Below, piece by piece: positions 33,001 to 36,000 of a DNA stretch of 64,000 nucleotides. Every line of letters starts with the position of its first letter. Within the stretch, counting starts at the first letter, position 1. This stretch comes from Escherichia coli. Its GTDB lineage: Bacteria; Pseudomonadota; Gammaproteobacteria; Enterobacterales; Enterobacteriaceae. Made by a program: the position numbers. The stretch lies in assembly GCF_046105845.1 (NCBI RefSeq), contig NZ_CP151004.1, one strand, 5' to 3'.

Positions 33001-36000
33001 CAGGAGAGAGAGCACGGACAGACTCTATCAGACTAATAAATTTAGTATTTGTGTCAACTTTAATATCATTTGGCGCAAAACTTTGCAGTATTTTTTTAGC
33101 TTGTGATACTCTTGTTTCATAAGCAGGTTGTTCATCGAATGTTGTTTTATCGAGATTCTTATTATGAACTGTATTGTTTATATTGCTAATATTATTGGTC
33201 ATTTTTGAATCCTCTTATACGATAGAATGGGAAGCAAATTTCAAAGCTTCAGTTCGGTGTTGTAATACACGCACCATCTGAGCTACCTCTTGTTCGACGG
33301 TTTTATCTATCCTCTGCATCACTGTAAGCATTTGTTCGCGCGTTTTTGATAGATTGCTTATATCTTGTTGTAGAATTTCGATATCTGCAGACTTACTGGC
33401 AGCGTATTGACTCATGCCCGATGTAAATATTGTACAAACGAGCGCGGAAACTTTTTCAAAAAGAATGGTTATTTTTGCAAATATCATTATAAACTTTGAT
33501 GATGCTTTTATTTTGTCACCGAGAAAATTTAATGCTGACATGATTTTTTTTGAAACTGACTTGATCATAGATTCCACGGTGGATTTTATACTGTCAGTTA
33601 TTTCTTTTGTGATTTCTTCGGCGGCAGTTTTTGAGAGTGCCTTTACAAGTTCACTTATTGCTACTGAACAAATTAATGTTGCACCAATCATTAATGTTAC
33701 CATAACAATAGAAGCGGCTGCAGATGAGTAAATATCTTGTACTAAATCAATAGTCGTTTGTTGGACACCCAAGGCGTCCAGAAGAGCGCAGATTGCGAGT
33801 AGTGTGGGGTCATATTTTGAAATAATACCCGAAAGACCTTCAGTAAGTTTTCCTAAAATCCAACCGGTAGCCGTGGTGCCCAGAACGATTTGACAGATAA
33901 TATCAACACCTAATACTACAGCCCCCGCTATTCCTCCAATTAGTGCCAGCGCCCCAGCAAAGCTTGCCCCAGCACTTGGAACTGCTGCGACAATACCAAT
34001 CACAATTAAGGCTGCACTTACGGCAAAGGTAACTACAGTAACGACCTCATTAATAATGTTTAAAACTTTTGTCCATGTAGTATAGCTACGCGCTGTTTCA
34101 TTGAGTTTATTTTCCCTGACATGGTTGATTTCTTTCATTACCTCAGATTGATTTTTAATCGATTCGCAATTGGTATCACCAATAACTTCCATTACTGAGG
34201 TAATCAAAAGGATAAATGTGGCTGTTGCGTTTCTGTTTTTCTGGTTTTCCTGGGTCAGGCAAATATTGGTGGTGAAGTTATTAATCTGTTCTTGCTGTTG
34301 AATTTCATCAAAAATCTCCATACTTTGGCCGATCGCAGCATCAGCATCCATAATGGCTGTATTTAACGATTGCTCAGCTAACGATTTTTTTTGTAATGAC
34401 AGCGTGAGTGTTTTTTCAGCCGCATTTTTTTGCGTCAGTACTTTATTATATTTCGGATCGCCAGGTTGCAGTTGCGACAGCTCTTGATTCAATGTATTGA
34501 CTTTTTTCTCCAGCGATTGCACCTTTTTATCGACCGCATTGTAATTATTATTGGCCTGATGCATGATGTCGTCGGCTTTTTGCGCGGAATCTAATGACGA
34601 GGCGTAGGCGTCGCTTAATTCACGAAATTTATTATGTACCATTTCGTGTCGAAGCAGGGTGCTTTCAAGGTTATTATGCAATCGTGTTGTAATATCCTGA
34701 TCGGCAATGCCTGTTAAATTACCCAAAATCATTGTCAGGCGGGCATCATTCGTCTTTGCTGTAGTGGCGTTGTCTGAATCTGAAACCTGCATTGCAGGCG
34801 GAGCAAGCATCGGTTTGTTTTCAAGACGAGCGCGAATATCGTTATCAAGGGATTTCGGGTTTTTATTAAGCCGCATGGGATCAACTTGCGTTTTGTTGCT
34901 GTCCTGCAGTCTTTTTTCCGCATCGCTATACTGTGTACGCAATGTTTCGCTGATTTGTTCAAACGTGATTGTTTGTCCCGTAATCGGTGCCGACATAATT
35001 CACCTCCTTTTAAGCTATCATCGGGTGTAATTAATTCTTTTTTATTTAACTCATGGAAGATGTTTATTCCCATCTAAAATGGCATCAACGGGAAAGTAAG
35101 TAATGTGTTTATTGTTATTCTTCTCATTTATTTTATCGCCATGGTTATTTTTTAAATCAACCGGGGCTTCCTCATGATATTTCCTGATTAACTCTTCAGG
35201 CGTAAAAGAAGAGTTTTTTCCGTTTATGTTCATTTTGCCGACTCACTCTGTTTGAACTTCCTCTTCGGTATTGGCTGTCAAGAGTTCAAGATAAGCAGTA
35301 GCCATCTCTTTAACTTTTTCATTTTGGCTGTAGGTTACGACTGTATTAAATAACTCCGTGGCCATTTTAGTGTTTTTTAAGCCCATCTGGCATTGGCCCA
35401 TATAATAAACCAAAGAGAAATCGTTATCGGGAGATAGCATTAAACAGATATGATACATGTCGAATGCCTTTTGATAATCTTTCTTCAACTGACAGACGGC
35501 GGCATATCCTTTTAAATAGTTATAATTTTGGAAATCATAAATACAGAGAAATTTAAAAAAGAGCTCAGCTTCGTCAAGTCTTCCTTTTTCATAAAAGTTA
35601 TAAGCGTAAGCATAAACGCCTTCAAGGGTATCCGGAGTAATGCCATGCAGCTCTGCAAGTGTTGCTCCCATACCTAGTGCACGTTCGAACTTACTGGCAA
35701 TTTCTTTATTTTCTTCTAAATCCAGATTTGCGCTTTCCATCTCTACTCTCTCCTTTCGAACATTCTTTGTGCAGACTTCACCATTTTTTAGAGGGTGGTG
35801 ATATCAAAATTCGCTCATTTTTATGCCCATCCGTTGGGCTTCCTTTTCTGCATTAAAAACAAGTATTGTTTCAATGAGATAAGATTTTCTATGTGATGAA
35901 ATGAAAACAATGTAGAGGGAAATTCCTCCACAATCCTGATGAACGGGTTCAATTTTGATTGGAATTTGAAAAAGCAGGTGATTTACTGATGTGCGAGCTT

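Follow-up and report, generated by a model that had tools for sequence, protein, structure and literature searches.

An orphan 60-codon open reading frame in the long eicA–eipB interval of the Escherichia coli eip island

Type III secretion systems (T3SSs) of the Inv/Mxi-Spa type encode their translocators in operons with a recurrent gene order (sicA-sipBCD, ipgC-ipaBCD), in which the gene for a class II tetratricopeptide repeat (TPR) chaperone is followed by those for a SipB/IpaB-type translocator, a protein in the SipC/IpaC position and a SipD/IpaD tip protein. The eip operon of Escherichia coli has the same order. Here we describe a 60-codon open reading frame (ORF) that lies within this operon, between the chaperone gene eicA and the major translocator gene eipB, in a stretch of 64,000 nucleotides of contig NZ_CP151004.1 (RefSeq assembly GCF_046105845.1), referred to below as the window. 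A preliminary description of the window had pointed out that in Salmonella pathogenicity island 1 (SPI-1) and the Shigella ipa operon the chaperone gene is followed almost directly by the translocator gene, and our measurements bear this out: in five operons the distance ranges from −8 to 34 nt (Shigella ipgC-ipaB, 5 nt; Providencia, 2 nt; a Salmonella plasmid T3SS, −8 nt; Burkholderia, 18 nt; and a SPI-1-like contig, 34 nt), SPI-1 sicA-sipB itself being outside this set. In the eip operon, by contrast, the interval is 246 nt long and holds the extra ORF. The eip operon also differs from the sicA-sipBCD and ipgC-ipaBCD operons in standing apart from the genes of the secretion apparatus: it adjoins yicS and selC, at a distance from the apparatus genes (ETT2, T3SS 2 of E. 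coli), which are located at glyU.

The literature on the eip locus lists six genes, eicA, eipB, eipC, eipD, eilA and eaeX/air, and mentions no seventh. The locus was defined, and its regulation by EilA was shown, in enteroaggregative E. coli (EAEC) strain 042; the islands of sequence type 69 (ST69) are intact according to Fox et al. A further class with which the ORF can be compared is that of lineage-specific orphan small ORFs, which are annotated as 'hypothetical protein' in AT-rich horizontally acquired islands. Like these, the eip ORF is short, AT-rich, without a family, restricted to one species and annotated by pipeline, and it shares with them relaxed or neutral evolution and frequent pseudogenization. 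It is unlike typical orphans in being longer than expected by chance, in lying in the sense orientation within an operon, in having a conserved C-terminal quarter and in having a positional analogue in a sister species.

We found that the ORF occurs only in E. coli, has mostly drifted neutrally and is broken in about one third of otherwise intact islands, and it is therefore probably not a needed gene. Our preferred reading, which we hold with moderate confidence, is that the ORF is confined to one lineage, can be dispensed with and probably has no function, and that it lies inside an expanded intercistronic leader. The ORF is an uncharacterized orphan that pipelines already annotate; only two features set it apart, a gap of ~250 nt peculiar to eip-type islands and a sharp change from a variable to a conserved part.

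The ORF and the interval that contains it

The ORF runs from an ATG to a TGA codon on the minus strand (35051–35233), and its position, its length and its translation agree with the preliminary description. The distances of 10 and 55 nt to the neighboring genes given there refer to the same positions counted inclusively; counted exclusively, 9 nt separate the eicA stop codon from the ORF, and 54 nt separate the ORF from the eipB ATG. Pfam matches to TPR_3 and T3SSipB likewise confirmed that the flanking genes encode the chaperone and the SipB-like translocator. The ORF had also been called unannotated, which does not hold: the NCBI Prokaryotic Genome Annotation Pipeline (PGAP) calls it as 'hypothetical protein' in hundreds of RefSeq genomes. 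Of 5,426 complete E. coli genomes, ~732 carry the island, and nearly all of these have the call; one such entry, WP_001024524.1, is identical to the product encoded in the window. Literature searches turned up no ribosome footprints or peptides for the ORF.

The 9-nt linker between the eicA stop codon and the ATG of the ORF (35234–35242, minus strand) contains a weak Shine-Dalgarno (SD)-like GAG and is invariant in the haplotype alignment. The SD duplex of the ORF, at −4.8 kcal/mol, is the weakest among six starts in the island; that of eipB reaches −12.9 kcal/mol. The eipB site, AAGGAGGTGA (35000–35009), forms the end of the 54-nt untranslated spacer that separates the ORF from eipB (34997–35050, minus strand). 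The spacer has 54 nt in the window and 55 nt in most of the aligned islands, which have a run of five A residues just upstream of the eipB SD site where the window has four (35010–35013); the spacer of loci L001 and L085 is also 54 nt long, through a separate deletion in an AAAAAA run.

A codon-usage test of the reading frame initially seemed strongly coding (+31 log units), but this result was produced artificially by the stop codons of the other frames. Set against random ORFs matched in composition and free of stop codons, the ORF could not be told apart (z 1.14). This test is without power, since the genuine genes of the island are also indistinguishable from random ORFs.

Two other islands place the long interval in context. 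In E. albertii, an orthologous island (loci L066–L069 and L086) with the same complement of genes occupies this position beside yicS; identity to the E. coli proteins is 70% for the chaperone (EicA) and only 27% for the translocator (EipB), and the chaperone–translocator gap measures 263 nt. A divergent E. coli eip-like island (L071 and L072; GCA_009799345.1 and GCA_910664965.1) encodes an inverse-autotransporter adhesin, a chaperone 54% identical to EicA, three translocator/tip proteins and a HilA-like regulator, and has a gap of 255 nt, in which no ORF longer than 30 codons is present. The gap sequences of the three island types do not align with one another. Thus, a gap of ~250 nt, kept in all three, is a shared feature of eip-type islands; a long open frame is found in two of the three, and the sequence of the gap is conserved in none.

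Distribution, frame breakage and drift of the ORF

Relatives of the peptide were confined to E. coli. Pfam and NCBIfam hold no family for it, a sub-threshold HAD match in NCBIfam being the only signal. Among 5.8 billion protein clusters, searched by word index, the only matches were E. coli variants (78–92% identical) and truncated forms, and a profile search over 1.84 billion representatives found no credible homologue outside E. coli; its sole match from another organism, a repetitive 1598-aa eukaryote-like protein, was taken as spurious. When one genome per species was scanned for EicA, no close relative was found outside E. coli, the lone match being a mislabelled contig from a metagenome-assembled genome (MAG). 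This contig (L011; JAIJJM010000039.1, 'MAG: Collinsella sp.') carries an E. coli eip operon with an EicA of 99% identity and with the A5 allele described below, and is almost certainly a case of binning contamination. AlphaFold2, run with a small alignment, gave a low-confidence model of the peptide (mean predicted local distance difference test score 55) with one short helix.

The frame is broken by two independent one-base slips in a run of six A residues (A6) at codons 27–29 (35148–35153, minus strand). The A5 allele (−1) encodes a 34-aa product and the A7 allele (+1) a 29-aa product. Exact allele searches over the ~732 islands found A5 in 146 genomes and A7 in 82 (228 genomes, 31%), and stratified sampling of 60 genomes gave 18 with a disrupted frame (11 and 7, respectively). 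PGAP flags the copies in strains MS6198, AGR6137 and EAEC 042 as 'frameshifted'; that of EAEC 042 is an A5 allele, annotated as pseudogene EC042_RS31660, and the ST69-type allele is frameshifted as well. EicA, EipB, EipC, EipD and EilA are all full length in loci with a broken ORF. The frame is thus not kept intact across orthologous loci, as would be expected of a coding gene under purifying selection, and the frame-disrupting indels that the preliminary description had named as evidence against a conserved gene are present.

Phase variation was considered as a cause of the slips and rejected: the run is only A6, where 8 or more residues are usually expected, and the alleles are lineage-fixed. 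A5 and A7 each lie on a haplotype of their own with linked substitutions, consistent with single origins that became fixed in lineages. Because the copies in EAEC 042 and in the ST69-type islands are frameshifted, strains regarded as 'intact' for eip differ at this ORF, and tests of its function need a strain with the A6 allele. The pseudogene status of the 042 copy may be one reason why the ORF is absent from the literature.

Substitutions were compared between the window, 54 metagenomic contigs and 10 loci that came from complete genomes and from protein look-ups. Since the contigs were retrieved by a 26-nt pattern inside the conserved part of the ORF, the sample is biased there, and the claim of conservation rests on unbiased searches of complete genomes. 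The flanking genes showed the pattern of constrained coding sequence, with a dN/dS of 0.07 for eicA (8/6/28 segregating sites at the first, second and third codon positions) and of 0.13–0.30 for eipB (106/65/203). The small ORF as a whole had a dN/dS of 0.585 (15/12/14), while its other two frames gave 0.69 and 0.73, their segregating sites being uninformative. Over codons 1–45 (35099–35233, minus strand) the ratio was 0.80 (13/11/10), near the values of the other two frames, with no excess of third-position changes. Codons 2–45 have undergone 8 synonymous and 36 non-synonymous events relative to the consensus, the neutral expectation being 18–26% synonymous, and the nucleotide diversity of the first 135 nt of the ORF (0.044) compares with third-position diversities of 0.044 in eicA and 0.053 in eipB. 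Given that the event counts match the neutral expectation and the diversity matches that of third positions in the flanking genes, the first three quarters of the ORF behave as unconstrained DNA.

The last quarter differs. Codons 46–60 and the stop codon (35051–35098, minus strand) encode a peptide, YFPVDAILDGNKHLP, that is invariant in all full-length clusters, and the diversity of these 48 nt, of the SD-proximal spacer and of the first eipB codons is 0.005–0.008. Across all complete genomes, the 5′ 135 nt of the ORF are spread over identity bands of 279, 243, 204 and 6 genomes, whereas the 135 nt that adjoin this variable part are practically identical in ~728 genomes. The conservation does not end with the ORF but takes in the non-coding SD region and the beginning of eipB; no variation is present in the 3′ half of the spacer, and that in the 5′ half is confined to the lineage represented by N96 and locus L002. 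The codon-level comparison proposed in the preliminary description had a divided outcome, neutral for codons 1–45 and mostly synonymous, with few events, for codons 46–60.

A leader reading and its alternatives

The 246-nt eicA–eipB interval would, on our preferred reading, be an expanded leader peculiar to eip-type islands, in which the open frame is incidental. The eip system would not need the peptide, the first 45 codons being free to vary and the A6 slips sparing the neighboring genes. Where the frame is intact, ribosomes that end eicA would probably start again at the ATG, 9 nt further on, and release a short peptide with little structure at the stop codon 54 nt upstream of eipB; eipB would be translated independently from its own very strong SD site. 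In that case, the final ~50 nt of the ORF would be constrained, together with the SD region and the opening codons of eipB, mainly as a cis-acting upstream region of eipB (its translation initiation region, possibly a promoter or operator) rather than as protein. The preliminary description had left the choice between a small operon-specific factor and an expanded spacer. The frameshifts, the neutral codons and the ~250-nt gap in the three eip-type islands favor the spacer; the length of the ORF, the E. albertii analogue and the C-terminal constraint stay on the side of the factor.

Several observations weigh against the leader reading, most of them in favor of a genuine but fast-evolving small protein of eip-type islands, of which only the C-terminal motif would be constrained, the Asn/Ser/Lys-rich N-terminal part serving as a tolerant linker or resembling a secretion signal. 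We regard such a protein as unlikely, though as the main rival of the leader reading. A sense ORF of at least 60 codons arose in only 55 of 5000 (1.1%) dinucleotide-preserving shuffles of the 249-nt gap. The 263-nt gap of E. albertii contains a 70-codon ORF (~6519–6731 in L066), a length reached in 0.4% of shuffles, and chance does not readily account for a long ORF at the same place in both species. Both start close to the chaperone gene, 9 nt past its stop codon in E. coli and, in E. albertii, with a GTG that overlaps the stop codon and has a good SD site (−8.8 kcal/mol). BLASTP detected no similarity between the products of the two ORFs, and no other homologues of the E. albertii product were found; the E. 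albertii ORF would be a diverged counterpart, since a fast-evolving 60-aa protein would go unrecognized in a species in which EipB itself is only 27% identical. Within E. coli, codons 46–60 have 5 synonymous versus 1–2 non-synonymous changes (P ~0.003–0.015), a test that counts 6–7 events and whose boundary was picked after the data had been seen. In the N96/L002 lineage, the last 48 nt of the ORF differ at 2 of 48 sites, both synonymous, amid diverged flanks (14.8% for the 5′ part of the ORF and 10.9% for the spacer, with the spacer changes confined to its first 30 nt). This pattern of codons 46–60 fits constraint on a protein better than it fits an unbroken stretch of conserved non-coding DNA. 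Nonsense changes were absent among ~50 events, which is not significant (P 0.11–0.34). In a metagenomic protein of 58 aa (P0004, from an ENA contig), the A5 frameshift is accompanied by another short deletion, which brings the C-terminal part back into its original frame (...DLKITIAINEKNNNKH...YFPVDAILDGNKHLP); this allele comes from one sequence with low support and may reflect true compensation or an assembly error. The call of the ORF by PGAP also sides with a protein. Finally, the cis role that we assign to the conserved part has no positive support, because the promoter, terminator, Rfam and fold searches reported below were negative.

Against a protein stands the finding that the C-terminal motif is missing from 31% of the islands, those of 042 and of the ST69-type allele among them, while every other eip gene is there; on the protein reading, this loss would be due to A-run slippage within a general attrition of ETT2 and eip. 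Codons 2–45, moreover, cannot be told from neutral DNA, the divergent eip-like island has no such ORF, and the peptide has no homologues and a structure predicted with low confidence only. PxLxxP is the chaperone-binding motif described for IpaB, PopD and YopD. Residues 62–67 of EipB (window ~34796–34813), PMLAPP in a translation read by eye, fit the motif, and by inspection the motif is absent from the 60-aa peptide. A more specific form of the protein reading posits a positionally conserved, extremely fast-evolving small protein between chaperone and translocator in the E. coli and E. albertii eip-type islands, with a Ser/Asn/Lys-rich N-terminus resembling a T3SS signal and a short conserved C-terminal motif, which would act as a small secreted substrate or as an EicA partner that tunes translocator release, with no counterpart in SPI-1 or Mxi-Spa; this we consider improbable. 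If the ORF did encode a functional protein, strains with 'intact' ETT2/eip would differ in function, the protein having been lost through slippage in the A run from the 042 and ST69-type lineages. As matters stand, on the leader reading, the ORF is of little consequence, one more pipeline-annotated orphan, and the population data suggest that the eip system manages without the peptide.

The conserved 3′ end could also be an internal promoter or regulator-binding site for eipBCD, with the ORF incidental. This explanation accounts for a low-diversity block of ~165 nt upstream of and into eipB that is near-invariant in ~728 genomes next to 135 nt that vary widely; the block is of a size that fits a promoter and 5′ untranslated region, and the ~250-nt gap is present in all three eip-type islands. 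We think it unlikely and rank it, like the translation role below, as a lesser rival. A scan of the gap found no sigma-70-like promoter, and no MxiE-box-like motif was found in it at up to 3 mismatches, a weak test since the consensus is that of MxiE and may not suit the ETT2 homologue EivF. The literature searched gave no transcription start data. A diverged stretch of 30 nt breaks up the block in the N96 lineage, and the mostly synonymous nature of the substitutions in its ORF part is not predicted by a DNA site. The strongly conserved 3′ part of the gap is still a reasonable place to seek regulation specific to eipBCD.

Alternatively, translation of the ORF rather than the peptide might matter, with ribosomes shielding the eicA–eipB transcript from Rho-dependent termination or RNases, in which case the A5 and A7 alleles would lower the expression of eipBCD. 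Open frames in two species without sequence conservation, the start close behind the eicA stop codon and a neutral peptide with retained openness are what such a role would produce. It is, however, very unlikely: 31% of islands have a frame cut short at codon 29 or 34, which leaves ~200 nt untranslated, the divergent island has no comparable ORF, the absence of nonsense changes is not significant, and no terminator-like or structured element was seen. A-rich, C-poor sequence such as this is, in addition, a poor loading site for Rho.

A leader peptide with an attenuator and a structured RNA were rejected as candidates: the terminator scan of the gap found no site, Rfam gave no match at E values up to 1, and the fold z-scores (−1.06 and −0.46) were not significant. 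Base pairing predicted for the 3′ end of the ORF with eipB codons 3–9 was also set aside: it has no support from covariation, and the only change that falls within it, from T to C in L001/L085, disrupts a pair.

Two further observations concern the E. albertii ORF. It exists in two alleles that are 2 nt apart, both changes being non-synonymous, a diversity too low for a test of selection. Gene callers include the ORF in only some of the assemblies.

Island context and divergent translocator alleles

The island in the window is the selC-B 'eip' locus, as described in EAEC 042 and ST69. It is AT-rich (~35–40% GC), and its genes lie on the minus strand, amid backbone genes (setC, yicL, nlpA and yicS) and near the tRNA-SeC gene (40221–40315). 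The first gene of the operon is eicA (35243–35740), a 165-aa ORF for a class II (SycD/LcrH/SicA-type) TPR chaperone (Pfam TPR_3, 2.5e-17) that PGAP names 'SycD/LcrH family T3SS chaperone'. It is followed, beyond the small ORF, by eipB (33215–34996), a 593-aa ORF for the SipB/IpaB-type major translocator (Pfam T3SSipB; SctE in PGAP), by eipC (32072–33202) in the SipC/IpaC position, by eipD (30679–32028) for the IpaD/SipD tip protein and by the HilA-like gene eilA (28779–30476), all on the minus strand. The Pfam matches to TPR_3, T3SSipB and T3SS_TC, together with the PGAP names, agree with the translocator gene order of the Inv/Mxi-Spa type.

The translocator alleles are deeply divergent within E. 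coli. The EipC of the window is 47% identical to that of the 042/ST69 type (loci L009, L011, L023 and others), and its EipB is 83% identical to the corresponding EipB, with divergence in the 3′ third; in loci with divergent EipB and EipC, EicA, EipD and EilA are 97–99% identical. This suggests cassette-like recombination or diversifying selection acting on the translocators. Insertion sequences (ISs) also interrupt translocator genes in loci whose small ORF is intact: ISKpn26 lies in eipC of strain GF43 (L001, 12637–13616), and IS1 in eipC of strain 103 (L010, 5378–5902) and in eipB of strain XJ6-3 (L080, 3633–4330). Among the 5,426 complete genomes, the closest matches to the window, over 205–901 bases, have 99.3–99.5% identity, none reaching 100%.

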